DNA from: Candidatus Caccopulliclostridium gallistercoris | Lineage (GTDB): Bacteria > Bacillota > Clostridia > Christensenellales > UBA1242 | Direction: 5' to 3' | Assembly: GCA_018713725.1 (NCBI GenBank) | Contig: DVOJ01000015.1 | Location: 9,402 to 73,401 of the forward strand | Length of the DNA: 64,000 nt | Part shown: piece after piece, positions 15,132 through 31,391 of the stretch | Layout: the number at the start of each line of letters is the position of its first letter | Position numbering within the stretch: position 1 is the first letter of the stretch | The notes under the pieces: model-generated | The model's input: the letters and a program-made list of their open reading frames with translations, nothing else | What the model was told of the DNA's origin: nothing | Databases searched by the model: none | Translations under genes and position numbers: made by a program

Positions 15132-15199
15132 ATGCACATATAATAGCAAAACACAACACCTAAAAAACGGATTTTAAGAAAAAAACTTTAAAAATTTTC

Positions 15200-15221
15200 A
15201 AAAAAGACCTCAGCTGAGGTC
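15200..15221 (-). terminator. Intrinsic terminator
   Basis: GACCTCAGCTGAGGTC followed by a T-run on the minus strand, just after the 15241..15768 stop. Confidence 0.55.
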
Positions 15222-15240
15222 CATTTTAAAATGCATGATA

Positions 15241-15768
15241 TTAAAAATCATATAAAGTAGTCGTATCTGAAACTTTGATATAATATCTTTCAAATAATGA
15301 GGTGTTTTTTATATCTAATTTATAAACACCAATAAATGTAAAACTATCTCCATTCTTTTCAAAAACTGCTTTATAAGCATACTCAAAGGTTTTACCGAGA
15401 TTAGATGGTGGATTTGCTTTATCTCCAACAAAATTTTCTTTAATTCTTCCATCTTTTAAAAAGACATCTTTCCATCCAGCTCGTTCAATTCCATCAAGTG
15501 CAATAATCCACATATAATAAGTATTTGTTAATTTATATGTTGCCTGAACCCACTTTTGTAGATTAGTTCCAATAAGATAGTTTATCAATTTATAATTTTT
15601 ACTTAAAGGAAAAGTATCTCCAGTTTTGATAACTTCATTTCTTTTTGTGTTTTTCATAAAATTATCTTCTTCAGTATCAGGATTTATTTTCTTTTTGCAA
15701 ATTTCACAAACGTCTTCATCTTCTTTTATATAATTTAATTCACATTGTGGACATTTTTTATATTTCAT
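15241..15768 (-). CDS. Zinc-ribbon protein with an unknown C-terminal domain
   Basis: N-terminal CPQC...CEIC. No recognisable catalytic motif. Confidence 0.4.
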   Translation of the reverse strand: MKYKKCPQCELNYIKEDEDVCEICKKKINPDTEEDNFMKNTKRNEVIKTGDTFPLSKNYKLINYLIGTNLQKWVQATYKLTNTYYMWIIALDGIERAGWKDVFLKDGRIKENFVGDKANPPSNLGKTFEYAYKAVFEKNGDSFTFIGVYKLDIKNTSLFERYYIKVSDTTTLYDF

Positions 15769-15790: not shown

Positions 15791-15827
15791 TTTTTCTTTT
15801 ATCTCAAAAAGAGAGGCAATAAGTATT
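15791..15827 (+). repeat. 37-bp perfect direct repeat, copy A
   Basis: TTTTTCTTTTATCTCAAAAAGAGAGGCAATAAGTATT, identical to 30823-30859. Lies immediately 3' of the res stop. Confidence 0.9.
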
Positions 15828-18800
15828 AATTTATGCTTTTCATAACATTAAGTAAATCTTCGTAACTTGTTACATCGTGGTATCGAACTTTACTTGTAGA
15901 TAGTTCATTAAACAGCTTTCTTGCACATTTTATCTTTGCTTGTTCAATTGGTCTAAGTTCAAGTGATTCCATTGTTCCTTTTGTTTCTGCAACAAAATAA
16001 ATATGCTTTATTCCATACCCATCATTGAATGCAATTGCCCAGTCAGGTGCGTAGTTGCCAACAGGGGTAGGTATTTGGAACGATCTTGGAAGCTTTGCGT
16101 AAACACAAACCTCGTCAGCTTTGTCTAGATCTTCAGCAAATCTTCTTTCTACTGAATTTTCAGCAGTTCCATCCGTAAACACATAGTCCTGAACAGCCTT
16201 TTTAGCCCTGAAAGCTTTGTTAAAATCAGCTTTTGTTTGGTTTGCTGTAAATATATCAGTGTCGTATGTTCCGTCCGTTACATTGTAGGTTACATGGTCG
16301 ATTATCATTGTTGCTTTTTGTTCGTTTATAAGTCTAATTACCTTTGAAATAAATTCTTCAGGATTAAGTTTATACATATAGAATTTTGCCGGGCTTATTC
16401 CCTGTAATATCCTTACAATTGTCTTTCTTGTAAGAGTTGTGCCTGCGACGATTTTACCAATTAAATCGTATTTTGTACTATCTGCTCCTGCACTAGTTAT
16501 ACTTTCTGTTCTTGTTTTAGTAGCACCGAACGAATCTCCTCGTTTCACTTGGTTTTCGTCCATAACTCTTCTTTGTTCGCCAATTGTTACTGTGTACTTC
16601 ATCTCTGCAACAAATAGTTTATCATCTATATGTGCAATAGATTTTTTGATAAGTTCTTCGCTGTCAAACTCCACTTTGTATGTGTATTTGTGATTGATAT
16701 AATTCCATAATGTTTGGAACTCTTTCTTTGCAAAGTTGTCGTTGAGTGCATTATCAATAACAGTGGTTTGATTGCCATTTTCAATCATTCCATCAAGTGC
16801 TTTTTCATCAAAGATGCCCTGTACAAGTTTGTGAATGCCTTCAGTATAAGGTGCAAGAATAGCAGGCATTTCTTTGAATGCACCATTTTCTTTGTCTGCA
16901 AAGTAACTTTCAGTAAGCTTATTGTCTTTATCTACATAGCCACTAAATCTAAGATAACTTTGAATGTCAGTTGCAAGTTGTGTGTCAACCTGAATTGTAT
17001 TAGTGCCATCGCTAACAAATTTGCCCTTGAAGTATTCCACAGTTGCTCTTGTAGGTCTATCTGAAAGGTTAGCTTTAATATCCTTTTGAATATCTGCAAC
17101 AAAGTCCTTATAACTATCAGTTGCAACAACTGTAAGCATATTTATTTTGTGGAAGTTGTTTCCAGTGGTAGCACAATAATGTGCATCAGCTCTATCTCCA
17201 AGCATATTGACAGCAATACGAAGCCCACGACCAACTTCTTGTCGTTTTGCAACAGCAGATTCTCCACCAGGCTTCAATGCACAAATTTGGAATACATTTG
17301 GGTTATCCCATCCCTCACGAAGTGCAGAGTGGGAGAATATAAATCTCGTTGGCTCTTCAAAAGACAACAATCTCTCTTTGTTTTTCAAAATTAAATCATA
17401 TGCAGAAATGTCGTCCGAACCTGTTTCTTTGTTATCTTTTGAGTCTATCATTCTGCCTGTTTTCTTATCAACAGAGAAGTAGCCTTTGTGAGTATCTTCA
17501 ACTGCAATACTCTTTAAATATTTAATGTATGGTGTTTCAAATAAGGTCAAATATTCGTTTAATACTTTTACATATTCTTGTTCAAACATTCTTGCGTATT
17601 CGCCTTTTTCGTCAGGCTGATCATAATCTCTATACTTTTTAACCTCATCAATAAAGAATAGGGAAAGGCACTTTATACCTTTGTTATAAAGCATTTCTTC
17701 TTTTTCAAAGTGAGAACGAATTGTTTCTCTTATCTGCACTCTACGAATGTCTTTGTCTGAAATATCTCCAATAACTTCGCCAATCTTAATCTCTATATCA
17801 TTTAAGAATGTAACAGAGTTTGTGAATGGATTGATTTCTTTGATAACATATCCATTTTTGTATTGTTCCATTTCATTGGAAAGGCTATATAAGTTTCTTT
17901 CAACGCCTAATATTCTTGTTTCTCGGTTAATTGACTTGTTGTAGTTAATTTCAAATTCAAGTTTTGCCATTGGTGGTTTGTTTTTAGATAAAACAATGTC
18001 TTGAAGATATAGATATCCATTTGTTCCACGCAGGTTTTTAATTTCAAAACCTTTAACTTGAATTTTCTTAACAAGTTTTTTGTTGTATGCATCCAAAGCA
18101 TCTAGAGAATAGACTAGGTTGTGGTGTTTTCTATGGGTTGCAGAGAAGTTCATATTGAATAGTGGGTTAAACTTTTTAAGTGAGGTTTGGGTTGCCTCTC
18201 CACCAAGTTTTTGTGGCTCGTCAATGATAAGTATTGGTCTTGTCTTTGCCACAACATCAATAGGTCGGCGAGACTGGAATTCGTCAAGCACCATGTCAAT
18301 TCTTCGAGCATCTGCACCACGAGCATTGAAAGCCTGTGCATTGATTATCATTACTTGAATATCACTAGAAGAGGCAAAACTATCTAGTTCAGACAGTCTT
18401 TTGCTGTTGTAAATAAAATATCTTGCTTTCTTGCCATACTGATCCATAAAGTGATCTTCCATCATTTCAAACGACTTTTTGACGCCCTCACGAATAGCGA
18501 TGCTCGGAACAACTATGATAAATTTACTCCAACCATATCTTTGATTGAGTTCAAAAATTGTCTTTATGTAAACATAGGTTTTACCAGTTCCTGTTTCCAT
18601 TTCAATATCAAGCGAGCACCTGCCAAGCCCTCGAACGAGTTCTTCAGACTCTTTGTAGTTGTTATCTTGCTGAATTTTCTTGATGTTTGCAAAAATATCT
18701 GCATCTTCAAGCACGATTTTGGCATTCTCAAAGCCATCGTCATTTATCTCAAATGCACCTGTATCTATCATATCAATCTGAGCCTCGACCTTTTTACGCC

Positions 18801-18918
18801 TAATACCCAAATCTCTTGTATATCTAACCATGTCAAAATAAGGTTGTCCTTTAAACACCTTGCAAATGTTATTTACAGCATCCTGCTGATATGGTTGTGT
18901 TTTAAATTTGAATTTCAT
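15826..18918 (-). CDS. res: Type III restriction enzyme Res subunit (helicase-nuclease)
   Basis: Helicase motifs METGTGKTY, IIDEPQK, FSATH, LREGWDNPNV. C-terminal PD...ExK (APDWAI...VAETKG). ATG at 18918 with a GAGG RBS is preferred. Confidence 0.85.
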   Translation of the reverse strand: MKFKFKTQPYQQDAVNNICKVFKGQPYFDMVRYTRDLGIRRKKVEAQIDMIDTGAFEINDDGFENAKIVLEDADIFANIKKIQQDNNYKESEELVRGLGRCSLDIEMETGTGKTYVYIKTIFELNQRYGWSKFIIVVPSIAIREGVKKSFEMMEDHFMDQYGKKARYFIYNSKRLSELDSFASSSDIQVMIINAQAFNARGADARRIDMVLDEFQSRRPIDVVAKTRPILIIDEPQKLGGEATQTSLKKFNPLFNMNFSATHRKHHNLVYSLDALDAYNKKLVKKIQVKGFEIKNLRGTNGYLYLQDIVLSKNKPPMAKLEFEINYNKSINRETRILGVERNLYSLSNEMEQYKNGYVIKEINPFTNSVTFLNDIEIKIGEVIGDISDKDIRRVQIRETIRSHFEKEEMLYNKGIKCLSLFFIDEVKKYRDYDQPDEKGEYARMFEQEYVKVLNEYLTLFETPYIKYLKSIAVEDTHKGYFSVDKKTGRMIDSKDNKETGSDDISAYDLILKNKERLLSFEEPTRFIFSHSALREGWDNPNVFQICALKPGGESAVAKRQEVGRGLRIAVNMLGDRADAHYCATTGNNFHKINMLTVVATDSYKDFVADIQKDIKANLSDRPTRATVEYFKGKFVSDGTNTIQVDTQLATDIQSYLRFSGYVDKDNKLTESYFADKENGAFKEMPAILAPYTEGIHKLVQGIFDEKALDGMIENGNQTTVIDNALNDNFAKKEFQTLWNYINHKYTYKVEFDSEELIKKSIAHIDDKLFVAEMKYTVTIGEQRRVMDENQVKRGDSFGATKTRTESITSAGADSTKYDLIGKIVAGTTLTRKTIVRILQGISPAKFYMYKLNPEEFISKVIRLINEQKATMIIDHVTYNVTDGTYDTDIFTANQTKADFNKAFRAKKAVQDYVFTDGTAENSVERRFAEDLDKADEVCVYAKLPRSFQIPTPVGNYAPDWAIAFNDGYGIKHIYFVAETKGTMESLELRPIEQAKIKCARKLFNELSTSKVRYHDVTSYEDLLNVMKSIN

Positions 18919-18931
18919 ATATTTTTTCCTC

Positions 18932-20911
18932 TTAAATACCGAGCTTTTCAAATAAAACTTGATTTCTTTTTTTAGCATCATTTAATATTTTGTCATAAGA
19001 TAAAATTTCAAGATATTCATTATTATTCATTCTATAATAACCGAGTCCATCGACTGTTTCAGTCATTCCATATGTTGATATTATTTTACTTTTAAAAGTA
19101 GGAGAGATATCACAAATAACATACATATAAAATTTAGTATTTTCATTTACTTTAATGTATCGTCCATCTTTATCTTTTTTAGTACCAGTCTGAATTTGTG
19201 TTTTATAGTCAATAATTTGATCAATTGGACTATTATATGGAAGATCTTCTCTCATAGGTTTTTTTAATTCAAAAATAACAATATTGTCATAACATGTCCC
19301 ATCATTTTTTGCCTCAGTTAATGCTATACTTCGATCAAAAAACATAATATCAGGACGATCTTCATCCTGCTGATTATTAAACGGAATGTCTGACGAAATA
19401 TAAAAATAATATGATAATTTTTCATCAATTAACCATAAATTTTGTTCATCAAAAGTAATTTTATCATCTGAAGTTTTTTTCATTGGGTATATTAAATTAT
19501 GCATAAAGGACTCTTTAGCATATTTTGAATTATCACTAATAAGCATTCCTTTTTCAAAGAGATCTAAAATAGCTCTTCTATGAATTATATAATCTGCCAG
19601 TCTTGATTTATTTGAATCTGAAATTTTCTCGACCAATGCTTTTATCTTTTCTTCATATTCTTCAATTGAGGTTTGATCAGTAATTGTTTTAACAATTTCA
19701 GTTTTCTCATTATTAATCTCAACTTCAAACTCATTCTTAAGTTTATATAGCTGTTCCTCTAATTTTTCATCACTTAAATTAGACTTAATCCTTTTAAGTT
19801 CATCAGCTTTATACTTTAATAAATGTCTATACTGTGGTGAATGGCAATTAATATAATTTGAAATTCTTTTATTTTTTTGTTCTATTATTGGATCTAAAAA
19901 ATCTTTTAATAATTGCTTAATATATGCACAAATATCATTTAAAATACGCTCCATAGAAATTAATTCCACACCATTAATTATTATGGCCTTTTGTGAAATG
20001 GTTGAAAATTCCAATCTATTGCTATCAACATTTTCATCTAAAAATTTTGAATTAACTACTCCCAAATAATAGCTATTTTCATCTAATTTTAATGACTCAA
20101 TATCACTTATAAAATCTTCTAATTTTATTGTTTTTACACTTCTATTGTTTGCACATAATTCCAAAAAATGTTTATTAATTATAGATCCATCAATCTTTAA
20201 ACTCACTACATTAAACTTTTTATCGAGTATTTGAATATCATCTTCGTTTATTTTATATATTTTAGATTTAAATAAATCATTCAAATTTATTTTTTCTGAA
20301 TCATCTTGAATAATGATTGTTGGACAATTAGAATCTAAAAAATATTTAAGTAAATGCGAAAGTATTTCATTTGCTATTTGATTTAATTTTTTGGGAAAAG
20401 TTTTTTTAAAATCACTTTTCATGTTCATTAAAGTAATAGATGTTTTCAATGATTTATTATTAGAAGAGATAAAATCATTTTCATTTATATTTTTAGTTTC
20501 AGTATTGAACTGAAATTTTCTTTCGAAATAATTATCGTTTTCCAAAAATATACTATGAATATCGACATTATTAAATGCTTTCAACCAAGAGAAACGACCA
20601 ACCCCCTTACCTCCAATGTCGGCTTTATGATCAGTGTCTGATTCCATAAAAGATTTAAAATTATCTTTGTTGAATCCACAGCCATTATCTTCAATATTAA
20701 TTGAATCTATTGGTTCTATTCCATCATTTAGAAATTGTAAATCTCTTATAAATTTAATTGTAATTTTCCCAGAGTAATTCTGATTAATTATTTTTACTTC
20801 ATTAATGGCATGAATAGAGTTTACAATGCTTTCAAATAATGGGATCATTGAGTTATTTGATTGAAGTTGAAAATTTTTGACTCTTCCTTTTAAATTAACA
20901 TTAAAATTCAT
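18932..20911 (-). CDS. GHKL (Bergerat-fold) ATPase with a C-terminal PD-(D/E)XK-like module
   Basis: N box ESIVNSIHA, DNGCGF, GGKGVGRFS. C-terminal RPDIMFFD...IFELKKP. Sits between mod and res. Confidence 0.65.
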   Translation of the reverse strand: MNFNVNLKGRVKNFQLQSNNSMIPLFESIVNSIHAINEVKIINQNYSGKITIKFIRDLQFLNDGIEPIDSINIEDNGCGFNKDNFKSFMESDTDHKADIGGKGVGRFSWLKAFNNVDIHSIFLENDNYFERKFQFNTETKNINENDFISSNNKSLKTSITLMNMKSDFKKTFPKKLNQIANEILSHLLKYFLDSNCPTIIIQDDSEKINLNDLFKSKIYKINEDDIQILDKKFNVVSLKIDGSIINKHFLELCANNRSVKTIKLEDFISDIESLKLDENSYYLGVVNSKFLDENVDSNRLEFSTISQKAIIINGVELISMERILNDICAYIKQLLKDFLDPIIEQKNKRISNYINCHSPQYRHLLKYKADELKRIKSNLSDEKLEEQLYKLKNEFEVEINNEKTEIVKTITDQTSIEEYEEKIKALVEKISDSNKSRLADYIIHRRAILDLFEKGMLISDNSKYAKESFMHNLIYPMKKTSDDKITFDEQNLWLIDEKLSYYFYISSDIPFNNQQDEDRPDIMFFDRSIALTEAKNDGTCYDNIVIFELKKPMREDLPYNSPIDQIIDYKTQIQTGTKKDKDGRYIKVNENTKFYMYVICDISPTFKSKIISTYGMTETVDGLGYYRMNNNEYLEILSYDKILNDAKKRNQVLFEKLGI

Positions 20912-20926
20912 ACAATTTTATTCCTT

Positions 20927-22975
20927 TTATATTATTTTTCTTGTAGTTGATGGGGAATAGGTGTCAAAGATTTGGTCAAAGTTTACTGCAACGCTGTCTG
21001 AAGACATTGAGCTGTCACGGAATACTGCATATAGTGGTTGCATTTTGGCAATCTCGGTTACCACTTCATCAGTTAAGTTTTCATCAAAGCAACACACAAG
21101 ATTGCCATCATTTACATTGAATACTTTTTTACCTTTTATATCAAGTGTTTTAATTTCGCTTGAAAGTATAACGCCCATATCTAGCATAACTTGGAACAAC
21201 AAATCTTCAGGAGATCTATCTTCTTTAATATTACTTACCAAGTCAAGCAGATTTGTTTGTTCAGTATCACTAGGGGAATAATATACATCTTTCATATTGC
21301 TTGAATCAAGTTTTAATACACGGAAGCCAATATCAATAGGGCATTTACCAGAACTTTCTCCAATTTTCTTATCTCTCATATTATTGATTGCTTGAATGGT
21401 GTCAGGATTTGAATTTAATGCATCAATAATTTCTTGTTGTCTATTTGTCAATTCTTGACCCGCTAAGTCCATAGCAATTTTTTGTCCTGCACGACGAATG
21501 CGTTCTTTTCCTATTTCACAAATATTTTTATATCCTGCTTTGTAAGCTTCGCTCTTTTCATCGCATTTTTCAGGAAGCTGAACCATGATGAACTTTCTAT
21601 TGCCACCGTCTTCAGCATTTAGTTGCATAACAGCATGAGCAGTTGTTGCAGAGCCAGAGAAAAAGTCTAAAATAGTTGTATTCTTATCATTTTCTACAAT
21701 TCTATTTAATAATTTTTTAATTAAATACAAGGGTTTTGCATAATCAAACAATCTCATATCAAATAGCTCTCTTAATTCCTGAGAACTTCTATCGTAATTA
21801 ATTTCTTTTTCAATCCAAAAATCTTTACTTTTTGTGGTTGAATCTTTTTCAAGATAAGATTTTTCAAAAATATCGTATTCAAAATTATTATTTCTTTTTA
21901 CTTCTCTACAATACAAAAGACTTTTGTCCTTTTCAACTTTTTGTTTACTCCATCTCCATCGCCCATCAGAGCCATCTTCTAATTTAGGTATAATTTCTAT
22001 ATATCCATCTTTTTTAGTTGTAGAAATATCCTTTGTTTGAATATTGTAATAAATAGGGAAATAAAGAGTTGGTGAATCTTCTCTTTTAGAATCTGCACCT
22101 CTTTTTCTTAATCCCATATCCCTATATCGTTTACCAAATTCGTCTGTTTTATTATAAGTTTTTATTGTTTCGTCGTCTAGAGATTCTCCTAAAACTTTTA
22201 CATTGTTAGCATTTTTTGCATATATTGTAACATACTCACCACTTTCAGCAAAGAATTCACTTGATTGTCTTCCTCTTGGATTTGAAAGAATTTTTAAAAT
22301 TGCAATGCGATTTCTATTTCCAAAAATTTCATCACAAATTTTTATTAAATTAGACTGTTCGTTGTCATCTAAACTTATAGCAACGCAACCATCGTCAGTC
22401 AACAAATCTCTTGCAAGTTTTAATCTTGGGTACATCATTGAAAGCCAGTCAGAGTGGAAACGTCCATTGCTTTCGAGATTTTGTACCATACGATTGCCAT
22501 CTTCGTCATAACTTTTGCTATTTTGAAGATACTCATCGCTAGATGAAGCAAAATCATCATTGTAGACAAAATCATTACCAGTGTTATAAGGTGGATCAAT
22601 GTAAATCATTTTGATTTTATTTAGGTATGTTTCTCTGAGAAGTTTTAAAACATCAAGGTTATCTCCCTCAATGTAAAGGTTTTTTGTGTTGTCAAAATCA
22701 ACACTTTCTTCTCGGCAAGGACGAAGTGTTGCATTGATTGGTGAATTAGCAGTTAGAATTGCTTGCTTTTTACCTGCCCAGTTAAGAGTGTATCTCTCAT
22801 CATTTCCATCGACAACAACTTTGCTAAGTTCCTGTTTAAGCAAATCAAAATCAACAAGTTTAGTAACTTGTCCATTTTCATCTTTACCCTCTGTAACACA
22901 GTTAGGGAATAGCTTTGCTATTTTCTCAACATTTTCATCTACCAAGTTTTCACTCTGCATTTTTAATTTATTCAT
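20927..22975 (-). CDS. mod: Type III Mod DNA methyltransferase (beta-class N6A/N4C)
   Basis: Motif IV IYIDPPYNTGNDF precedes motif I LDFFSGSATTAHA. Size is typical of Mod. Confidence 0.9.
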   Translation of the reverse strand: MNKLKMQSENLVDENVEKIAKLFPNCVTEGKDENGQVTKLVDFDLLKQELSKVVVDGNDERYTLNWAGKKQAILTANSPINATLRPCREESVDFDNTKNLYIEGDNLDVLKLLRETYLNKIKMIYIDPPYNTGNDFVYNDDFASSSDEYLQNSKSYDEDGNRMVQNLESNGRFHSDWLSMMYPRLKLARDLLTDDGCVAISLDDNEQSNLIKICDEIFGNRNRIAILKILSNPRGRQSSEFFAESGEYVTIYAKNANNVKVLGESLDDETIKTYNKTDEFGKRYRDMGLRKRGADSKREDSPTLYFPIYYNIQTKDISTTKKDGYIEIIPKLEDGSDGRWRWSKQKVEKDKSLLYCREVKRNNNFEYDIFEKSYLEKDSTTKSKDFWIEKEINYDRSSQELRELFDMRLFDYAKPLYLIKKLLNRIVENDKNTTILDFFSGSATTAHAVMQLNAEDGGNRKFIMVQLPEKCDEKSEAYKAGYKNICEIGKERIRRAGQKIAMDLAGQELTNRQQEIIDALNSNPDTIQAINNMRDKKIGESSGKCPIDIGFRVLKLDSSNMKDVYYSPSDTEQTNLLDLVSNIKEDRSPEDLLFQVMLDMGVILSSEIKTLDIKGKKVFNVNDGNLVCCFDENLTDEVVTEIAKMQPLYAVFRDSSMSSDSVAVNFDQIFDTYSPSTTRKII

Positions 22976-23410
22976 TTATTTATCTCCTTTTTTATTTGTT
23001 GTTATGGCAATTTTAGTCCCACACTTATTACACTTATAACCATATGTGTTATCTCTAAAAACTCTTCCAGTCATTAAATCCTGCAATCCACTTTCAACAA
23101 CACCAAATAACATAGGAATTTGCTTTCCATGTTCATACAAACAATTTAAACAAAACGGTATTTCTTCTCCATCAAAATCTTTCACATCAGCTAGCGTATA
23201 AAATCCAGAATAAATTTTTGCGTTTCTTTTGATATTTGAAATCTCTTCTGATTCCTTTAATTTTTCTTTTAATTCTTTGTTCTCATCTAATAATTCTAAA
23301 TAATCAGTATATAGATCTTTTAATCTATCGGTTAGTTCTACACTTTGCACCACTTCAGGCAAAGCCAATAATTTTCTAAATTTATCTATTTTCCCCATTT
23401 TTACCTCCAA
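22976..23410 (-). CDS. Unknown coiled-coil plus zinc-ribbon protein
   Basis: 144 aa with a charged helical N-terminus and a C-terminal CLNC...CNKC. Its stop abuts the mod start. Confidence 0.4.
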   Translation of the reverse strand: MEVKMGKIDKFRKLLALPEVVQSVELTDRLKDLYTDYLELLDENKELKEKLKESEEISNIKRNAKIYSGFYTLADVKDFDGEEIPFCLNCLYEHGKQIPMLFGVVESGLQDLMTGRVFRDNTYGYKCNKCGTKIAITTNKKGDK

Positions 23411-23429
23411 CGCAATTTTGTTTAATATT

Positions 23430-24224
23430 TTAATACATATTGTTTATAGATATTTTAATTTGATAGGTGGGCGTAACTACAAGTTTTCCTTTCGTTATAA
23501 TTTTTGTGTTAACAACTTTAGGTTTATTAATTTTTTTTATAATAAAATCATTAAGTGGTATTAATAATAGACTTTTTATACCTTTTAGTAAATTAAATTT
23601 TTCCTCATTGCTGTCTTCCACTAATTCTACTATACATCTTTTATCTTGCGGGCTTGTCACTAATGCAACAGCATCTAATCTTTCTATTTTATTGATTACC
23701 TCGTGGCACATTTCCCCAAAATAAATTTCACCTGCTCTATGATTACATAAAGTATCTAAAATATCTCTTCCACATATGCTACATGTTATATTTGAGAATT
23801 TTGCTTCTATACTACTAAAAACTTTGTAAGGATATAATCTTTCAATTTTTTCAAAATAATTAATTAATTCTTTTATTGATTTTGAACTTTCATATTTTGA
23901 ATATAAATCTATAATGTCAATACAATCTTGCAAACAATTCCACGAGCCTCTAAAATTATCTTTTTTAATTTCTTGCAAAAACTTTGAATACTCGTAGATT
24001 AAACTTATATATAATTTAACAACGAATGTTGAGTTTGCAAAAGTTTCGTTATTTTCTTTTATTGTAAAGTTTTTAATACTTTCCAAGGACTGTATAAGTT
24101 TTTTATAATCTTCTTCAATATTGCAAAAATCTAGTTTATATAAAAGCATACAATACTCATCAAGATCTTTTTTTATCTTCTTAAACTCAGATGACTTTAT
24201 ATTTAGTAAAAATTCTTTAATCAT
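23430..24224 (-). CDS. Unknown protein with a Cys/His cluster
   Basis: CSICG-x8-CNH...CHE. The start at 24224 (GAGG RBS, overlaps the upstream stop) is preferred over the tracked 24272. Confidence 0.4.
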   Translation of the reverse strand: MIKEFLLNIKSSEFKKIKKDLDEYCMLLYKLDFCNIEEDYKKLIQSLESIKNFTIKENNETFANSTFVVKLYISLIYEYSKFLQEIKKDNFRGSWNCLQDCIDIIDLYSKYESSKSIKELINYFEKIERLYPYKVFSSIEAKFSNITCSICGRDILDTLCNHRAGEIYFGEMCHEVINKIERLDAVALVTSPQDKRCIVELVEDSNEEKFNLLKGIKSLLLIPLNDFIIKKINKPKVVNTKIITKGKLVVTPTYQIKISINNMY

Positions 24225-24660
24225 CTTCATCCTCATTAAAAAGCTTATTAACATCTTTAAATGTTTTTTCAAAACTTTCTACAGATCCATTGTAATTTAA
24301 TTCTTTTATTTTGCCTTTATTTTTTACTTTAATCTTCAAATTTATATTTTGTTTTGTTTTATCTTTTTTACCAATTTTATCATAAATAAAATTACTGATT
24401 AAGTTAATAACAACAGGCAATAAAAATGTTTCAGCCAAGTATAACACTGGCAACCAAATAGATGCATCATGTAAAGCGATAATGTCAGGATTACTTTCTA
24501 TAAATTGAATTTTTTTATTTTGCTCTCTTGCATACTTATAGAATTCAATAGAATCTTCAGAAAATAAGCACTCATTTGTATTTGAATTATATCTTATTGG
24601 GAAAATATATATTGTATCAGATTCTTTTGCTTTAGAAATCAATTCTTCTTCTTTATTCAT
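24217..24660 (-). CDS. Unknown protein with one predicted TM helix
   Basis: 147 aa with hydrophobic IWLPVLYLAETFLLPVVINLISNFIY and a Lys-rich C-terminal part. Confidence 0.4.
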   Translation of the reverse strand: MNKEEELISKAKESDTIYIFPIRYNSNTNECLFSEDSIEFYKYAREQNKKIQFIESNPDIIALHDASIWLPVLYLAETFLLPVVINLISNFIYDKIGKKDKTKQNINLKIKVKNKGKIKELNYNGSVESFEKTFKDVNKLFNEDEDD

Positions 24661-25296
24661 TTACACCTCCAACTCTTGCAGTTCTTTTTTCATCTGCTTT
24701 ATCTCGTCATTAAGTTTCATTTTTATATTTGGTTGTTTCTCTGCATTCATTATTTTTGTTTGCTTTTCAATTTCACTTTTTTGTTTTTTGATTGCACTCA
24801 TTCTATCAACATATTGTTTAAAATCCTCATCAATTCTGAAAGGGTATAAGGTAAGTTTTGCGATCATTTGTTTGTAGATATTTTCTAGTTTAACACTGCT
24901 TGGCATATCTTCAAGTTCTTCTTCTTGCCAGTCACTTTCAAAAGTTCTGAGTATCTCAATTTTCTCATCGTCTATGATTTTAACTGCAATTATGTATTTA
25001 ACTTTTTCGTTATACTTTAATGTTAAAAGTGTTTGAAAGTTTATGCTTTTATTAAGTGCTTCAATAAACTTTTCAGGAATTTTGTTTGAGTTAAGTTCTA
25101 TATCAAACACATAAATTTCTTTTACATTGTCACTTGATTCCATATTCGTTCTATCAGGAGATAAGACATTAGATAATGTGACTTTTGTGACATTTCCTGC
25201 ATCTGCTTTAACTACTTTATCTGCCTTTATAGTTCTGAATAGTTCAAGCATTTTGAATTGTATATTAACTTGAGTTTTTTCGCTAAATCTAAACAT
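24661..25296 (-). CDS. DUF4391-like protein
   Basis: Size and sequence pattern (EIYVFDIEL...IPEKFIEALNKSINFQTLLTLKY) match my recollection of DUF4391, a family seen beside SNF2 helicases and methylases. Needs HMM confirmation. Confidence 0.45.
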   Translation of the reverse strand: MFRFSEKTQVNIQFKMLELFRTIKADKVVKADAGNVTKVTLSNVLSPDRTNMESSDNVKEIYVFDIELNSNKIPEKFIEALNKSINFQTLLTLKYNEKVKYIIAVKIIDDEKIEILRTFESDWQEEELEDMPSSVKLENIYKQMIAKLTLYPFRIDEDFKQYVDRMSAIKKQKSEIEKQTKIMNAEKQPNIKMKLNDEIKQMKKELQELEV

Positions 25297-25308
25297 TCAT
25301 TCTCCTAA

Positions 25309-25971
25309 TTATTTTATTTCAGTAACTAAATATTTAAAATCATACTTATAGTCATTCCATTTGAAATTATACGAATTGTTAAATGTCAGTGAAACATCTC
25401 TCCAAGTTCCGTCCACGCAAGATTTATTGTTCGGTTTATACCATGACAATGGTTTTTTTGCAATAATTTCGTCTTTTTCACTGATGCAGAAGTCTTTAAA
25501 TAAGGTATTTCTACTTTGCTTATTTACTACCCAGTAGTTTTTTTCATTTGTTAACATAATAGCAAAACATTTTACACAAGTTTTTAATTTTTTATTAAAT
25601 TCATAAGCTGTATTATCTTTTTTCTTCAATAATTCTAGTCTATGGACATCCCACAGATAATCAAATCTACCTAAATCAGTTGCACCATGATTTAATAGTT
25701 TGACTCCGTTATATTCGCTACTTTTTGTTTTATATTTTAGTTCTATTGCAATAAAGTTTCCATCTTTATCTAAAACAATGATATCGGTATAAAGTCTTTT
25801 TAGTCTATTATTTTTCAAAGTAGTTGCTGTTGTTAATTCTAATTTAACTTTATAGCTTGGATAATTATCTCTTATAAGCTGTGCCAAATCAAATTGAAAC
25901 TGAGCTTCACTTTCAAAAACATCTTCCTGTTTTGCGAGTAATTCCATTAAATGTTTAATATCGATATCCAT
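25309..25971 (-). CDS. PD-(D/E)XK-like nuclease
   Basis: YTDIIVLDKDGNFIAIELKYK fits D-x(n)-E-x-K. Confidence 0.5.
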   Translation of the reverse strand: MDIDIKHLMELLAKQEDVFESEAQFQFDLAQLIRDNYPSYKVKLELTTATTLKNNRLKRLYTDIIVLDKDGNFIAIELKYKTKSSEYNGVKLLNHGATDLGRFDYLWDVHRLELLKKKDNTAYEFNKKLKTCVKCFAIMLTNEKNYWVVNKQSRNTLFKDFCISEKDEIIAKKPLSWYKPNNKSCVDGTWRDVSLTFNNSYNFKWNDYKYDFKYLVTEIK

Positions 25972-25980
25972 TCATTCTCC

Positions 25981-28900
25981 TCATTTGACTACCACAAAGG
26001 CTATAAGCTCAAAGTCGTCAAGTCCTTTTATTTTTGTTCCACTAAGCACCATGCTACCTTGCTTGAAAAGTGCGTTTATATCACTTTGCTCTTTAACCTC
26101 GATTATGCTTTCTATGGCTTTCTCTAATAGTTTACTATATTTTGACATATCAAGTCCATCATTTGTTTCTTCGTTAAAGACACTGCAAACATTGTAAAGT
26201 GGTTCTTTTCTTCCTTTGCAGGCAACACGAATTGAGTCAAGGATTTCCTTAACTTCAAGATGATTATTAACTATTTCTCCCTTTTCGTCAACATAAACTA
26301 GGTAGTAAGGGTGCAAGCGATTTTGCCTGTTTATATTCACATTGTTGTTTTGGTTTTTAAGAATGTAGATGACGCCTGGCACAATGCCACGAGAAGCATC
26401 TTTTTCTATGACGCAGTGCATTCCTTTTGGAACTCGCCTAGGCTCTCCATAAGTTTTGATAAACTCAGTTGCATCCATTCTAAATTCGTTTAATCCAAGA
26501 TCGCTTATAGATATACCACTATTTGTATCTTCAAGGTCAATATTTTCGCCCTCACGAAGCTTTTTGATTTGAACTTCACGGTAATCGTCCATTTGGTCAT
26601 CAGGATTTAAAATATTGTCATCAGCAGTTGCTGTTTGATCGACAATTGTCATTCTGCTTTTAACTCTATCAGTAAGGTTAATATACTCATTTAATGGAAG
26701 TGGTGGCCAAAAATTCACTAATTGTATTACTTTGTTTTTGCTACCAATTCTATCAATACGACCAAATCTCTGCACAATTCTAACTGGATTCCAGTGTATA
26801 TCATAATTTATACACATATCGCAGTCCTGCAAGTTTTGTCCCTCTGAAATACAGTCGGTTGCAATCAAAACATCAATGTCTTTGAAACAATCGTCAAACT
26901 CGTGTTTATCAATTTTCCCACTCCAATTGAGTTTAGGATCGTTATAACTTTCAATTTGTCTATGCATCCAACTGAATACTTGATCTCTGTTTTTACTTAT
27001 TGGGCTAAACATTGTAAGTAGGGTGTTAGTTTTCTTTGGACAATGTCTTAGGGATACTTTGTTCGCTTGTCCCTCGATCATTGCTGATTCTATCCCGTAG
27101 GTGTCTTTTAACCACTTATGCAAGTTCTCATAAAGATAATTTGCAGTGTCAGCGAACGCAGAGAAGATCAGGAACTTTCTATTTCCTGCGTTTATAGGAT
27201 TTTTTATTTTTATATCAATGATTTCCTTTAAGGTTTGAAGCTTTAAGTCATATTCAGGTGTGATTTTGCCAAGTTCATTTATAAGATACTCAAGTATCTC
27301 GACATCGTGTTCCATTGCTTTTTGCCAAGATAACCTATCAATATCAGCATATTCGATGTGAATTTCTTTACCTTTATCGGTTTGCACTAGGTTTAGACTG
27401 CCATCTTCATCTTGGTCAAACATTTCATAGTTAAACACCTTTTTAGTTGCATAGGCATCTGGTCGCATTTGTCCTGCATTGTAGTAGGATAATCTTTTAA
27501 GTTCTGCTCGGTTTAGGTCTAGCATTCCAAGCATAGTAAGTCTGAAAGCCTCGACACTTGATTCAAGTCTTTTTAGCAAGTTTACAGTCATTATACGCTT
27601 AATGCCAGAAGTTCTACCACTGCGAGTTAGTCCACTGTGTTTGATTTCAACATCGTATTTTCTTTCATATTTATCTTTTTGACTATCAAGCACGAAGTCA
27701 AATAGTCCATAGACTGCCATACTTAATGATTTTATTGATTGATAAATCTCTTTATATTGTGGCACATCTTTCCTTTTGGTAAGTTCAGGAGAACAAGAGA
27801 CTGGTGAAAGTCTATCAGGGAACTTGCCAATATCGTTCATATTGTAATATTTGGCAATATTCTTACGACTTCTTGCAATAGTAACACTATCAAGTAGAAT
27901 TTTAAAATCTATGCTTAACGCATCGATTAAATCTTTGTTTTTTCGTTCATTTGGTGGTCGTTTGCTCCAATCATTGAATACTGCTTGAGCTTGTCTAAAA
28001 ATTGTTGCGATGTTGCTTTTTGTGTCCAAGCTATTCTCAAATGCATCGTAATCTTGGCTATATGCAATTGCAAGTTGGTTTTTAAGGTCGTTATACCTAT
28101 TGTTTACAGGAGTAGCAGAAAGCATCAAAACTTTTGTTTTGACACCTGCTTTAATTACATGATTGATAAGGAAGTCATATCTTGTTTCTTTGTCTTTAAC
28201 AGGGTTATTGTTTCTAAAATTATGGCTTTCATCAATCACAACTAGGTCATAGTTTCCCCAGTTAACAAGCTTTAAATCTCTGCCATTATGTGCTGTCCCG
28301 ACACGACCTAAGTCTGTGTGATATAGCACCTCATATCTAATTCTATCCTCATAGAAAATATTTGTGGTATCATTACTGCTACCACAGTATTGTGTCCAGT
28401 TATCACTTAATCTCTTTGGACATAACACCAATATGCTTTTGTTTCTAAGCGAATAATAGGCAATAACAGCAAGTGCAGTAAAGGTTTTACCAAGACCAAC
28501 ACTGTCTGCTAGAATACAGCCATTGTGTTTTTCTAGTTTGTTTATTATGCTAATAACTCCATCCTTTTGGAAGTCATACAACATATTCCAAATTTTAGTG
28601 TCCTTAAAGCCTGTTGCCTCGTTAGGCATATTGTCTTCACTAATATCATCAAGAAATTCGCTAAAAATGTTATATAAAATTATGTAATAGATAAACTCAG
28701 GACTATTTTCTTGATAGGCACTGCTTATCATCTCCACCACATTGTCAGTTATTTCTTCAACTTTCGATTTGTCGTTCCAAACCTCGTCAAACATTGAAAA
28801 TAGGAATTTGCTTTGTTCTGCAAAGTCCGTTTTGCTTATTGCTGTAAATATACTATTTCCTTGTTGATAACCTAAGTCTGTAGTTGTAAAACCGTTGACT

Positions 28901-29337
28901 GGATTGTATGTAACCGAAGAACCATCTTGATGATCAATACCAATATAGTTTGGAATAGAAGAGTTTGTTATGTTACTTTTAAATTTAACTTTTTGTCTTA
29001 CCCAGTTGGCACATTCTTTTGCGATGGCTTTAAGTGTCATCTCATTCCTGAGTTTAATTTCAAACTCGCTACCATAAAGGCTGTTTTCTCGGTTTTGTTT
29101 TGGGATATAAAATTCTCGTTTTTCCTTTTTAACTCCCTCTGCGATTGTATCCTTTGTGAATGTTGGAGAAGTAAACAAAAATTTAAGTTCTTCAATTTGG
29201 CTTAGTTCTTCCTTTAATTCTTTAAATGCATACATTGAAAAACAAGAAGAGGCTATTCTTACCTTTGAGCCTTTTCTTAACTCACTTTTTAAATCATCTC
29301 CAAGCAGTTTCGTTCTATTGTCTATATTTTCAAACAT
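25981..29337 (-). CDS. SNF2-family helicase
   Basis: Motifs ILADSVGLGKTFTA, VVIDESHNFRN, LSATPVNN, QRFGRIDRIGS. Has ~240-aa N-terminal and ~250-aa C-terminal extensions of unknown function. Confidence 0.9.
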   Translation of the reverse strand: MFENIDNRTKLLGDDLKSELRKGSKVRIASSCFSMYAFKELKEELSQIEELKFLFTSPTFTKDTIAEGVKKEKREFYIPKQNRENSLYGSEFEIKLRNEMTLKAIAKECANWVRQKVKFKSNITNSSIPNYIGIDHQDGSSVTYNPVNGFTTTDLGYQQGNSIFTAISKTDFAEQSKFLFSMFDEVWNDKSKVEEITDNVVEMISSAYQENSPEFIYYIILYNIFSEFLDDISEDNMPNEATGFKDTKIWNMLYDFQKDGVISIINKLEKHNGCILADSVGLGKTFTALAVIAYYSLRNKSILVLCPKRLSDNWTQYCGSSNDTTNIFYEDRIRYEVLYHTDLGRVGTAHNGRDLKLVNWGNYDLVVIDESHNFRNNNPVKDKETRYDFLINHVIKAGVKTKVLMLSATPVNNRYNDLKNQLAIAYSQDYDAFENSLDTKSNIATIFRQAQAVFNDWSKRPPNERKNKDLIDALSIDFKILLDSVTIARSRKNIAKYYNMNDIGKFPDRLSPVSCSPELTKRKDVPQYKEIYQSIKSLSMAVYGLFDFVLDSQKDKYERKYDVEIKHSGLTRSGRTSGIKRIMTVNLLKRLESSVEAFRLTMLGMLDLNRAELKRLSYYNAGQMRPDAYATKKVFNYEMFDQDEDGSLNLVQTDKGKEIHIEYADIDRLSWQKAMEHDVEILEYLINELGKITPEYDLKLQTLKEIIDIKIKNPINAGNRKFLIFSAFADTANYLYENLHKWLKDTYGIESAMIEGQANKVSLRHCPKKTNTLLTMFSPISKNRDQVFSWMHRQIESYNDPKLNWSGKIDKHEFDDCFKDIDVLIATDCISEGQNLQDCDMCINYDIHWNPVRIVQRFGRIDRIGSKNKVIQLVNFWPPLPLNEYINLTDRVKSRMTIVDQTATADDNILNPDDQMDDYREVQIKKLREGENIDLEDTNSGISISDLGLNEFRMDATEFIKTYGEPRRVPKGMHCVIEKDASRGIVPGVIYILKNQNNNVNINRQNRLHPYYLVYVDEKGEIVNNHLEVKEILDSIRVACKGRKEPLYNVCSVFNEETNDGLDMSKYSKLLEKAIESIIEVKEQSDINALFKQGSMVLSGTKIKGLDDFELIAFVVVK

Positions 29338-29440: not shown

Positions 29441-29686
29441 TTAAAAAGCTTCATCATTTCCATCATCTAAACTATTAAATTCGTCAAATGATGTTTTGTT
29501 ATTTCCTTTTTTATTTTCTCCCCAAAAGGATTGACTAATATCTTGTTTGCTTTGTGCCTGCCAGTCACAAGTGCAATCTTCTAACAACTCTCCACAGGAC
29601 TCACAATGAGTTTCCCAATTAAAATCATGTTGTTTCTTCTTATCCTTTGGTTTTGAAAATCCAAATAAAAAATCTAAAAATCCCAT
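29441..29686 (-). CDS. Small Cys-rich protein
   Basis: 81 aa with CESCGELLEDCTC, between the WYL regulator and the SNF2 gene. Confidence 0.35.
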   Translation of the reverse strand: MGFLDFLFGFSKPKDKKKQHDFNWETHCESCGELLEDCTCDWQAQSKQDISQSFWGENKKGNNKTSFDEFNSLDDGNDEAF

Positions 29687-30822: not shown

Positions 30823-30859
30823 TTTTTCTTTTATCTCAAAAAGAGAGGCAATAAGTATT
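30823..30859 (+). repeat. 37-bp perfect direct repeat, copy B
   Basis: Identical to 15791-15827. Immediately 3' of the 30864..31391 stop and preceded by a 16-mer (30801-30816) also present at 15162-15177. Confidence 0.9.
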
Positions 30860-30863: not shown

Positions 30864-31391
30864 TTAAAGTTTTTGCAGGTCAATAATCTCTATATCTTTA
30901 CCAACTTTCTTTGCATACTGAATTGTGTTCCAAGTTCCACCTGATTGCTCTCCATTCCAAAATGCTAGCAGTTTATCACAATTATCAACCATATATTCAT
31001 TTCGTTTTTGCATACAGTCAAATGAGTATTTGTCGCTTACTAGAGTAATCTTATCTGCACTCAGAAGAATTTTTTGATATCTAACTTTATCTTCGGCATT
31101 CCATTTTTTATCTTGGTCCGTGCAAGGTAATGCCATTTCTAGCTTAATCTTGGTTTTATTTAATTTATTTAATAAAATCTTTGTATCTATTACAGCTCTT
31201 GCAAAGTCAAGGTCTACACCAATTGCACCACCTGAAATAAAATAATCATATCCATTTGTGGCATATTGCAATACGGTAGACTGCATTAAAGATATATATT
31301 CCACATACCTATCATCATTTACATTGCCATATTTCATTACTTTATTTAGCCCCTTAGGTCTATGTCCTGTAACAGCGATTTTCCTATGCAT
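30864..31391 (-). CDS. SLOG/DUF1273 (YpsA-like) protein
   Basis: KIAVTGHRPKGL and GGAIGVDLDFA, a Rossmann-like SLOG pattern. Confidence 0.5.
   Translation of the reverse strand: MHRKIAVTGHRPKGLNKVMKYGNVNDDRYVEYISLMQSTVLQYATNGYDYFISGGAIGVDLDFARAVIDTKILLNKLNKTKIKLEMALPCTDQDKKWNAEDKVRYQKILLSADKITLVSDKYSFDCMQKRNEYMVDNCDKLLAFWNGEQSGGTWNTIQYAKKVGKDIEIIDLQKL

Follow-up and report, generated by a model that had tools for sequence, protein, structure and literature searches.

The 64,000-nucleotide (nt) stretch of contig DVOJ01000015.1 from Candidatus Caccopulliclostridium gallistercoris analysed here (the window) carries on its minus strand, at positions 15826-29337, a tightly packed operon built around a Type III restriction-modification (R-M) system. 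This operon is probably a composite in which four core genes, encoding an SNF2-family helicase, a DUF4391 protein and the Type III Mod and Res subunits, host exchangeable defence genes (the cargo) at their junctions, the whole lying on an integrative and conjugative element (ICE). The initial annotation had described an SNF2 helicase module joined to a Type III R-M system and had counted two extra nuclease modules and an ATPase as added parts of that system. Comparison of related loci led to a different division. SNF2, DUF4391, Mod and Res were found together in every complete locus examined and therefore look like one four-gene system rather than two joined, and the nuclease modules and the ATPase behave as interchangeable cargo, having been swapped in relatives with near-identical cores. 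The window proteins were searched against the PADLOC models, Pfam, NCBIfam and PHROGs, and the genes of the operon are listed below with lengths in amino acids (aa), slot A being the SNF2/DUF4391 junction, slot B the DUF4391/Mod junction and slot C the Mod/Res junction.

25981-29337, minus strand: g1, core gene 1, SNF2-family helicase, 1118 aa (PADLOC and Pfam)
25309-25971, minus strand: g2, cargo in slot A, small PD-(D/E)XK-type protein, 220 aa, with a D..D..ELK motif; GC content 0.27
24661-25296, minus strand: g3, core gene 2, DUF4391 protein, 211 aa (Pfam DUF4391, E value 9e-26)
24217-24660, minus strand: g4, cargo in slot B, 147 aa, one strongly hydrophobic segment (residues ~68-95), no family match; GC content 0.23
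23430-24224, minus strand: g5, cargo in slot B, 264 aa, CxxC...CxH cluster, 8-nt overlap with g4; GC content 0.24
22976-23398, minus strand: g6, cargo or semi-core gene in slot B, 140 aa, coiled coil and C-terminal CxxC..CxxC zinc ribbon, stop codon abutting the Mod start
20927-22975, minus strand: g7, core gene 3, Type III Mod, beta-class N6/N4 methyltransferase (PADLOC MTase_III, 7.5e-216)
18932-20911, minus strand: g8, cargo in slot C, 659 aa, GHKL ATPase and transducer domain, long helical middle, C-terminal PD-(D/E)XK domain; GC content 0.24
15826-18918, minus strand: g9, core gene 4, Type III Res, 1030 aa, superfamily 2 (SF2) helicase with C-terminal PD-(D/E)XK endonuclease (PADLOC REase_III, 3.6e-291)
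15241-15768, minus strand: g10, cargo in the tail slot after Res, 175 aa, N-terminal CPQC...CEIC zinc ribbon, no family or plasmid match

To separate core from cargo, gene order was compared across homologous loci, a check that the initial annotation had proposed and that resolved a constant SNF2-DUF4391-Mod-Res series from variable junction genes. At least 19 contigs carry the exact DUF4391 protein in this ten-gene order and ICE context, two of them 100% DNA-identical to the window. Among the matches listed in the DUF4391 homologue search all were at least 92% identical, and diversity came from an exhaustive search for representatives, which returned about 400 DUF4391 representatives at 50% identity clustering. 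A profile search with a 6-sequence DUF4391 alignment gave 11 loci in genome contigs and one weak locus in metagenome contigs, and more loci, without exception from uncultured gut Clostridia, came from close DUF4391 variants (93-94%) and from scanning GTDB genomes. The SNF2-DUF4391-Mod-Res order was kept in all complete clostridial loci (L017, L025, L029, L034, L046 and L050, from metagenome-assembled genomes or metagenome contigs), and in the related loci the DUF4391 gene always lies between SNF2 and Mod. The contents of the junctions were as follows.

Window: g2 at SNF2/DUF4391; g4, g5 and g6 at DUF4391/Mod; g8 at Mod/Res; g10 after Res
L017: SNF2/DUF4391 empty; RhuM (351 aa) and genes of 266, 83 and 52 aa at DUF4391/Mod; 278 aa at Mod/Res; 175 aa after Res
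L046 (same chromosomal site as L017): SNF2/DUF4391 empty; SieB (215 aa) at DUF4391/Mod; 232 aa at Mod/Res; 175 aa after Res
L025 and L050 (same ICE site as the window): SNF2/DUF4391 empty; RhuM and DUF2971 at DUF4391/Mod; DUF2971 at Mod/Res; 142 aa after Res
L029: SNF2/DUF4391 empty; 143 aa and a SieB-like gene (214 aa) at DUF4391/Mod; 263 aa at Mod/Res; an open reading frame (ORF) of 85 aa after Res
L034: SNF2/DUF4391 empty; a g6-like gene (139 aa) at DUF4391/Mod; 242 aa at Mod/Res; no co-directional gene before the LexA-like gene
L028: 398 aa at SNF2/DUF4391; g6 (92%) at DUF4391/Mod; contig ends before the later slots
L032: a DUF4391 paralogue (298 aa) at SNF2/DUF4391; 164 aa at DUF4391/Mod; contig ends before the later slots

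The closest relatives (L017, L025, L046 and L050) are 99.6-100% identical to the window in SNF2, 98.7-99% in Res, 93-94% in DUF4391 and 66-71% in Mod, and their junction genes are unrelated to those of the window, with none of g2, g4, g5 and g8 present. The tail slot of L017 and L046 holds a g10 copy 94-95% identical to that of the window, and the tail gene of L025 and L050 shares just its first 61 aa with g10 (51%), the C-terminal part having been exchanged. Nucleotide homology to L017 and L025 breaks at the gene junctions (25969/25310, 24652/23003 and 20937/18930). Against both loci g2 is a clean 658-bp insert (25311-25968), and the other non-homologous stretches correspond to slot B (24651-23004) and to g8 (20936-18931). 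Locus L028, in which g4 is missing and a 92% identical copy of g6 comes straight after (directly 3' of) DUF4391, shows that g6 and g4-g5 are separable cassettes. Two cargo sets were found at one chromosomal site (L017 versus L046) and two at one ICE site (the window versus L025 and L050), and since cores that are 98.7-100% identical hold different cargo at the same genomic site the exchange is recent and junction-precise.

The core was also found outside the Clostridia. A tblastn search with DUF4391 against plasmids returned 19 records, and the core order is kept on the proteobacterial plasmids L036, L037 and L039-L042, arranged as follows with genes at the core junctions in parentheses.

E. 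coli IncF plasmids L037, L040 and L042: SNF2, DUF4391, methyltransferase, Res; bare, with no genes between
Citrobacter plasmid L036: WYL, SNF2, DUF4391, (Old-like nuclease and DUF2130), Mod, Res, DUF262
Raoultella plasmid L039: WYL, SNF2, DUF4391, (900-aa UvrD-like protein), Mod, Res, DUF262
Aeromonas plasmid L041: DUF262, SNF2, DUF4391, (900 aa), Mod, (AAA ATPase and DUF4276), Res

Identity between E. coli L037 and the window is 52% for SNF2, 50% for Res, 46% for Mod and 27% for DUF4391, and the four core genes co-vary in divergence across phyla. The E. coli version was present in 10 of 5,426 complete genomes, where the Prokaryotic Genome Annotation Pipeline names its genes 'helicase-related protein', 'DUF4391 domain-containing protein', 'site-specific DNA-methyltransferase' and 'type III restriction-modification system endonuclease'. 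The 900-aa 'ATP-binding' cargo of the Raoultella and Aeromonas plasmids was considered as a relative of g8 and rejected, as BLASTP detected no relation and the protein looks UvrD/GajB-like.

Several of the genes that occupy the same slots in relatives matched models of known or candidate defence systems, as listed here.

Aeromonas, Mod/Res slot: HEC-01A (2.9e-141) and HEC-01B (6.9e-71)
L017, slot B: PDC-S05 (RhuM; 1.7e-152)
L025, slots B and C: PDC-S31 (DUF2971; about 7e-28)
L029, slot B: PDC-M14A (4e-29) and SieB (6.8e-17)
Citrobacter, slot B: Old/GajA-like (3e-58)

HEC-01 is, in the accessible part of Payne et al., one of nine Hma-embedded candidates chosen for testing, of which seven were validated. 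Among the other occupants of the Mod/Res slot two have N-terminal hydrophobic helices, one an HExxH motif and one a HEPN-like R-x-H motif, and by these motifs, read by eye with no confirmation from hidden Markov models, they look like abortive-infection effectors. The operon thus has the features by which embedding scaffolds have been described, extra nested genes in the same orientation that vary between instances (Payne et al. 2024). Known defence systems are included among the nested genes of the relatives; the window's own cargo matched no defence model save for a weak SduA match of g2.

The domain calls of the initial annotation (g1 SNF2, g2 PD-(D/E)XK, g3 DUF4391, g4-g6 without family, g7 Mod, g8 GHKL-nuclease, g9 Res) all held when the proteins were searched. 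Helicase g1 matched PADLOC model PDLC01075 (C3a139, 'HKD+Snf2') best and over its full length (1.2e-105), and its Pfam domains are SNF2-rel_dom and Helicase_C. These are preceded by an N-terminal domain of ~230 aa that is strongly conserved from Clostridia to Proteobacteria in the alignment. Because the HxK(x)4D motif is absent from this domain in g1 and in 9 homologues (10 sequences), the 'HKD' of the PADLOC label is no indication of an active phospholipase-D-type nuclease in g1. The Mod subunit g7 matched Pfam N6_N4_Mtase (PF01555, 8.3e-30) and has DPPY and FxGxG motifs in its translation; it combines a methyltransferase with a target-recognition domain as expected of a Type III Mod, and its central target-recognition region (~21708-22320) is the sole part of Mod that diverges between close relatives. 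The Res subunit g9 matched ResIII (5e-17) and RE_endonuc (1.6e-31) in Pfam and has the make-up of a Type III Res. It scored 359.6 bits against NCBIfam PRK15483, under the 564-bit equivalog cut-off, and thus belongs to a divergent clade of Type III Res.

The second core protein, g3, was modelled by AlphaFold2 with high confidence (predicted local distance difference test score, pLDDT, 97.3) as a globular alpha/beta domain with a helical hairpin at its C-terminal end. A fold search of this model against PDB and BFVD found no match (best E values 0.018 and 0.03, template-modelling score ~0.2), and in the accessible literature that mentions DUF4391 no function is assigned, the name being just listed or used by mistake for DUF7941. 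Two side observations concern the same family: L032 carries tandem DUF4391-family genes (5249-6779), a divergent 298-aa paralogue followed by a 214-aa orthologue, and the 398-aa protein in the SNF2/DUF4391 slot of L028 gave a weak DUF4391 match.

A further contig, L044, shows DUF4391 with a different partner. Its order at 1940-9585 is PglX, a bAvd-like gene, a PglZ::DUF4391 fusion (795 aa), Mod (48%), 50 aa and Res (50%), and its PglX is BrxX-like (E value 1e-90 to PDB 8c45). The percentages are identities to the window proteins, and this Mod and Res belong to the window's clade. This single contig is a hybrid of a bacteriophage exclusion (BREX) system and a Type III system that uses DUF4391. 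In all related loci examined, mod and res are thus accompanied either by SNF2 and DUF4391 or by PglZ::DUF4391, and since the DUF4391-Mod-Res block pairs with PglZ instead of SNF2 in L044 we propose DUF4391 as an adaptor on the Mod/Res side.

Among the cargo proteins g8 is the best characterised by motif. Alignment of 54 homologues showed invariant E27, N31, D75xGxG and G100GKGVGR, and in the C-terminal part D521/E548-x-K550; the N-terminal part thus has the Bergerat motifs of a GHKL ATPase, together with an S5-like transducer. Its AlphaFold2 model (pLDDT 81.7, with lowest confidence in the C-terminal nuclease region) gave Foldseek top matches to the ATPase modules of SMCHD1, Hsp90, MutL and GyrB (E values 8e-12 to 1e-9), and Pfam returned a weak HATPase_c_3 match. 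No match was obtained in PADLOC (E <= 0.01), NCBIfam or to Pfam DUF4263 or SduA, the isolated C-terminus included, and a profile search against PDB sequences found nothing. The architecture resembles paraMORC3, described as a GHKL, S5 and restriction-endonuclease-fold protein that is often a standalone gene (Iyer et al. 2008; PMC2292703), and the V. cholerae protein VcSduA (GHKL-Shedu, 'type I-D Shedu'), which has the same architecture as g8 and defends, its E27A and K557A mutants having lost phage defence (PMC12137116). Shared features are the GHKL domain with E27, a transducer-like middle and, in the C-terminal PD-(D/E)XK part, a predicted catalytic lysine at ~550 (K557 in VcSduA). Unlike these proteins g8 lies between mod and res and escapes detection by DUF4263 and SduA, and the likeness to VcSduA is by published description only. 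As both models miss it, g8 was not filed as Shedu.

Relatives of g8 also occur alone. In Pelotomaculum and Christensenella, homologues with 45-47% identity stand by themselves at the margins of conjugative elements, with neither mod nor res in the vicinity, and a homologue is present on 60 plasmids, mostly annotated 'ATP-binding protein'. On a Vibrio fluvialis plasmid (L043, 126-8019) a g8 homologue (32.5% identity) ends a Type I R-M operon in which an AAA ATPase separates hsdR from hsdM; the gene immediately preceding the homologue encodes a distinct Shedu-family nuclease. The label 'Shedu immune nuclease' near this match was discarded as evidence on g8, as it belongs to the neighbouring gene.

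The protein encoded by g2 gave a weak PADLOC SduA/DUF4263 match (E value 5.9e-4), and its homologues, 25-32% identical, are standalone genes in prophage structural modules and on small plasmids; in prophage head modules they are single extra genes, one of them lying between the large terminase and portal genes of a Peptoclostridium prophage. The g4 and g5 proteins are near-orphans, g5 having 3 matches among 5.8 billion proteins, and a relative of g6 (23% identical, E value 1e-7) occurs at the same place in L034. No family match was found for g4, g5, g6 or g10 in PADLOC, Pfam or NCBIfam; PHROGs gave nothing significant for the cargo genes, with marginal matches for g5 and g10, and permissive Pfam scans of g2, g4, g5, g6, g10, the g8 C-terminus and the g1 N-terminus returned nothing credible. 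The core genes have GC contents of 0.29-0.35 as compared to 0.23-0.29 for the cargo genes.

The nine packed, co-directional genes of the initial annotation were recovered at 15826-29337 in the ORF listing with the sizes first read, every ORF at its reported position. Genes called independently on identical metagenome contigs, together with the positions of ribosome-binding sites (RBS), moved three starts downstream, to 24224 for g5 (264 aa), 23398 for g6 (140 aa) and 18918 for Res (1030 aa, beginning MKFKFK). Successive genes from g1 to g9 are then spaced by 9, 12, 0, -8, 31, 0, 15 and 13 nt. A GGAG-type RBS precedes every gene from g1 to g9. The span given for the operon was confirmed for its nine genes but proved too short, the unit being extended by g10 and a terminator 3' of res and by a WYL gene and an 81-aa ORF upstream. 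Gene g10 is co-directional and starts 57 nt past res, and no minus-strand terminator was found between res and g10. The sole good minus-strand terminator, an intrinsic-terminator-like hairpin with a T-run, follows g10 and probably marks where the transcription unit ends, and two weak hairpin matches fall within g1 and g8. The minus strand carries most genes between 2 and 43 kb of the window and co-directionality alone is therefore not special; what goes beyond chance is the core gene order kept across phyla. Phase variation of mod or res through repeats was ruled out by the absence, from 15-30.8 kb, of any A/T homopolymer of at least 9, any G/C homopolymer of at least 6 and any short tandem repeat.

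Disrupted versions of the operon were also seen. In L003 and L005, two near-identical metagenome contigs, a 92-nt deletion splits Mod (equivalent to window ~21300-21391), a 38-nt deletion (window ~18908-18945) joins g8 and Res in frame into a 1679-aa ORF, and a replacement of ~49 nt (window ~17353-17401) splits Res. Such changes may reflect alleles inactivated in nature or errors of assembly. A 1342-aa fusion of SNF2 and g2 called in L006 (5960-9988), whose DNA is 100% identical to the window, was rejected as a gene-calling artefact, as g1 ends in a TGA that shares the reading frame of g2, and a caller reading through TGA would join the two.

As predicted from these domains, Mod would methylate host sites and Res, combining an SF2 ATPase with a PD-(D/E)XK nuclease, would cut unmethylated incoming DNA. 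The DUF4391 adaptor would dock a second motor, the SNF2 ATPase, on the Mod-Res complex, with PglZ at the SNF2 position in one relative. The core junctions (SNF2/DUF4391, DUF4391/Mod, Mod/Res and after Res) would be points of insertion and exchange for unrelated, self-contained defence genes, and this cargo would ride on the transcription and translational coupling of the core. Swapping would most likely proceed by homologous recombination, with conserved core genes as flanking homology. By analogy with PrrC in Type I systems and BrxU in BREX, the cargo would act independently of the core as extra layers of defence, and the upstream WYL regulator would probably control expression.

Several points weigh against a core with exchangeable defence cargo. 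The comparison sample consists of about 20 loci from two phyla, all reached through DUF4391, and such sampling leaves room for loci with SNF2 and DUF4391 but no Mod and Res. The Mod/Res slot is always occupied in the clostridial clade and some gene there could be needed by the system; similarly, a g6-like protein precedes Mod in three lineages (window, L028 and L034) and g6 may be semi-core or a regulator. The window's own cargo gave no significant PADLOC, NCBIfam or PHROGs match, the weak SduA match of g2 (5.9e-4) excepted, and its candidate defence role is read from position, plus architecture in the case of g8. The PglZ::DUF4391 fusion, seen on one short-read contig, may result from a frameshift error, in which case the adjacency of the genes would still stand. 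A promoter scan of the locus did no better than on shuffled sequence, so that the transcript structure is deduced from spacing and one terminator, and all biochemical activities of the operon proteins are predictions from sequence.

The alternative that survives best is an ordinary defence island, in which a two-gene Type III R-M system, an SNF2+DUF4391 pair and single-gene systems sit side by side on the ICE with no scaffold, and we regard it as unlikely. Defence genes generally cluster on mobile elements, PADLOC names just Mod and Res as a known system, and the family of g1's best model, C3a139, which originated in a 2018 survey of genes adjoining type III CRISPR loci, was first noted beside such loci and so travels in defence islands. 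Island neighbours would flank one another, whereas here g8 lies between mod and res and g2 between SNF2 and DUF4391, with every gene on the same strand and hardly any distance between them. The retention of the core order with co-varying divergence across phyla, the existence of a bare operon and breakpoints placed exactly at core gene junctions argue in the same direction.

An obligate machine of nine or ten proteins, that is, a Type III enzyme enlarged by another helicase, further nucleases and a GHKL ATPase that work jointly, is improbable given that relatives with 98.7-100% identical SNF2 and Res do without g2, g4, g5 and g8 and carry unrelated genes instead, that E. coli plasmids have the four core genes alone, and that relatives of g8 and g2 are found alone elsewhere. 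What speaks for it is the tight coupling of g1-g9 (spacings between -8 and 31 nt, every gene with its own RBS), the prediction of paraMORC GHKL ATPases in R-M systems beside SF2 helicases (PMC2292703) and the clostridial Mod/Res slot that is never empty.

It is very unlikely that the small inserted genes are regulators, addiction modules or anti-restriction modules that control R-M during ICE transfer, for example by timing Mod and Res in a new host or by protecting the ICE's own DNA. The g6 and g10 proteins are small and have zinc ribbons, g6-like genes stand just before mod in three lineages, none of g4-g6 and g10 matched a defence model, and the locus lies on a conjugative element beside a LexA-like repressor with an operator-like repeat common to both. 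The same-slot cargo in relatives is overwhelmingly of defence type, however (HEC-01, Old-like, PDC-S05, PDC-S31, SieB and HEPN-like), g8 and g2 bear nuclease motifs and not DNA-binding regulator domains, and the same core is found in a chromosomal setting outside an ICE with other cargo.

The least credible alternative is Hma, or a DUF499-centred BREX-related system, with embedded genes, g1 being HmaA, g7 HmaB and g8 HmaC: the weak HmaA match, the standing of Hma as a known host of embedded systems in the accessible literature and the N-terminal HKD and Snf2 helicase and N6 methylase of type-2 BREX-related systems are outweighed by a C3a139 match that is full-length and ~80 orders of magnitude stronger, by g7 being a Type III Mod, by g8 being a GHKL ATPase-nuclease without a PADLOC match and so not HmaC/DUF499, by the lack of DUF499 and DUF3780 among 12 proteins and of HxK(x)4D in g1, and by the lack in Hma of a Res-type endonuclease or DUF4391, so that at the level of family models this alternative is already refuted.

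The Hma label had come from the initial annotation, which saw in the operon a scaffold of the helicase-methylase-ATPase (Hma) kind. The idea of an embedding scaffold was borne out by the junction-exact turnover of cargo, and the label was not: the locus has no 5-methylcytosine (m5C) methylase, no DUF499 protein and a weak HmaA match, and the PADLOC search suggested at the time labelled Mod and Res as a known system and did not label the locus Hma. Hma consists of the HmaA helicase, the HmaB m5C methyltransferase and the HmaC ATPase (PMC8565338), the last of which was later identified as DUF499 (PMC12839542). The match of g1 to PADLOC HmaA (PDLC00659; 1.9e-23) covers two short stretches with helicase motifs only. 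The HmaB model was not among the 25 PADLOC matches of g7 (Type III and Type II N6/N4 models only), HmaC/DUF499 matched none of the nine proteins in PADLOC or Pfam, and DUF499 and DUF3780 matched none of the 12 operon proteins scanned. As two of three defining parts are absent and the third matches weakly, the locus is not Hma. Like Hma and the DUF499 BREX-related systems it has an SNF2-family helicase and a DNA methylase in an operon that hosts embedded genes, and g1 resembles the helicases of type-2 DUF499-centred BREX-related systems, which have an N-terminal HKD domain and Snf2 helicase with an N6 methylase (PMC12839542), in having an extra N-terminal domain before the Snf2 core. Unlike Hma it has a Res endonuclease and DUF4391 and is without DUF499, m5C methylase and DUF3780.

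Class 1 of the defence island system associated with restriction-modification (DISARM; DrmD SNF2 and DrmMI N6 methylase) and BREX share with the operon a methylation-based design, an SNF2-type helicase and an upstream WYL (BrxR-like) gene. Against NCBIfam DrmD g1 scored 133.6 bits, compared to a 610-bit cut-off, and its PADLOC DrmA match (6.4e-16) covers helicase motifs only; its DpdE match is likewise sub-threshold and in helicase motifs (PADLOC 5.3e-21; NCBIfam 88.4 bits versus a 500-bit cut-off). DrmB/DUF1998 and DrmC had no match in the operon in PADLOC or Pfam, which leaves it outside DISARM. Models for DrmA/B/C, BrxA/B/C/L, PglX and PglZ gave no real match among the 12 operon proteins scanned, and models for other BREX, methylation-associated defence system (MADS) and Dpd components gave no match in the operon.

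The core corresponds to Type III R-M systems of the EcoP15I/EcoP1I type in its beta-class Mod with a variable recognition region, its SF2 Res and the order of mod before res on one strand. It differs from them in that the pair is preceded by SNF2 and DUF4391 in all loci examined, in that a 2-kb foreign gene splits mod and res in the window, and in that the region of the operon has none of the simple-sequence repeats driving phase variation in many Type III mod genes. Embedding has been documented for Hma, BREX, DISARM and Type I R-M in the accessible parts of Payne et al. (2021, 2024), and further examples are PrrC in the Type I system EcoprrI and BrxU in BREX; Type III hosts are not among the systems covered in the accessible text of the published embedding surveys. 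As in those embedded systems foreign defence genes are nested in a modification-based system in the same orientation with highly variable contents, and the cargo families recur (HEC-01, PDC-S05, PDC-S31, PDC-M14A and Old/Gabija-like). The SNF2-DUF4391-Type III host, the up to four slots per operon and the differing cargo between 98.7-100% identical cores set the present loci apart.

Reading the operon as a Type III core with exchangeable cargo would extend the defence-within-defence principle to a Type III-based scaffold, a type of host outside the coverage of the surveys as far as their accessible text goes. Junction position then offers a practical route to new immune genes, with g4-g5, g6, g10 and to a lesser degree g2 being without functional annotation, and a widespread four-gene system, whose DUF4391 part is without known fold or function, has been carried in databases under generic names. 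The bare version on E. coli plasmids such as pEC21Z137-115K (NZ_CP101235.1, 3254-12300) makes the contribution of the SNF2 motor to a Type III enzyme directly testable. Being carried by a conjugative element of gut Clostridia, the locus is also relevant to the spread of multi-layer phage resistance by mobile elements. A bolder proposal, which we put forward tentatively and think somewhat less likely than its opposite, is that SNF2-DUF4391-Mod-Res forms a distinct, unnamed class of methylation-based immunity with DUF4391 as adaptor for SNF2 or PglZ, with junctions specialised as sites of within-species exchange, with g4-g5, g6 and g10 as new defence genes, and with the filled clostridial Mod/Res slot marking a functional link, for example cargo that fires when a phage inhibits Mod-Res.

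The features surrounding the ten genes are listed below.

29696-30697, minus strand: transcription regulator with WYL and WCX domains (BrxR/CapW-like; Pfam WYL 2.8e-9, WCX 1.5e-7; PADLOC WYL 6.8e-28)
29441-29686, minus strand: 81-aa ORF with a Cys/His cluster and no family match, 9 nt after the WYL gene
30823-30859, no strand assigned: upstream copy of R37 (perfect direct repeat of 37 nt), flanked by the YpsA-like gene and the promoter region of the WYL gene
15791-15827, no strand assigned: downstream copy of R37, starting at the res stop codon
30778-30820, minus strand: 43-nt element upstream of the WYL gene, with an inverted repeat (AAATCC-N7-GGATTT) and a -10-like box (TGCTATAAT)
15205-15222, minus strand: intrinsic-terminator-like hairpin with T-run after g10

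The WYL gene has the composition and placement of the BrxR family, a WYL domain with C-terminal WCX encoded directly upstream of a defence system, and its product is a probable regulator of operon expression. A WYL gene is also directly upstream of SNF2 in L025, L031, L034, L036 and L039, and BrxR-type regulators have been reported beside clusters of Type III and Type IV systems, which matches the Citrobacter and Raoultella loci. L017 is without the WYL gene and keeps a 3'-end remnant of the 81-aa ORF upstream of SNF2. The two R37 copies are 100% identical, lie 15,032 nt apart and bracket the region from the WYL gene to the res stop codon; the pair also flanks WYL to Res in L025 and L001-L006, and in L017 one copy is present, after res and with one mismatch. 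R37 may have been left by recombination when the whole module was inserted, or may be a regulatory site that occurs twice. A copy of the 43-nt element, 79% identical, is found at 15139-15181 upstream of the LexA-like (S24 peptidase) gene, and its motif also precedes the LexA-like gene in L034, which suggests a putative operator or promoter common to the defence operon and the ICE repressor. An Rfam scan found no RNA family in the window.

The surroundings are those of a conjugative element, with an integrase, two MobL relaxases, a TraG-like coupling protein, a TrbL-like protein and the LexA-like repressor. The MobL genes (11169-12825 and 36333-37983) each have an overlapping upstream ORF of ~152 aa, and the integrase gene (34357-35688) lies between them, suggesting two mobile elements in tandem or nested. 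ARAGORN called a 68-nt tRNA-Ile(GAT) at 32195-32262 on the plus strand, below the Rfam gathering threshold, which may be a degenerate tRNA or the remnant of an attachment site near the integrase end. Close upstream of the WYL gene is a YpsA/SLOG-family gene (30864-31391). Otherwise identical elements differ in the stretch that separates the integrase from the helix-turn-helix (HTH)/YpsA genes (window 31529-34254 versus L001 1643-3785), which holds DUF1848 and 217-aa genes in the window and DUF6883-like and 161-aa genes in L001 and L002 and is a second variable cargo region on the ICE.

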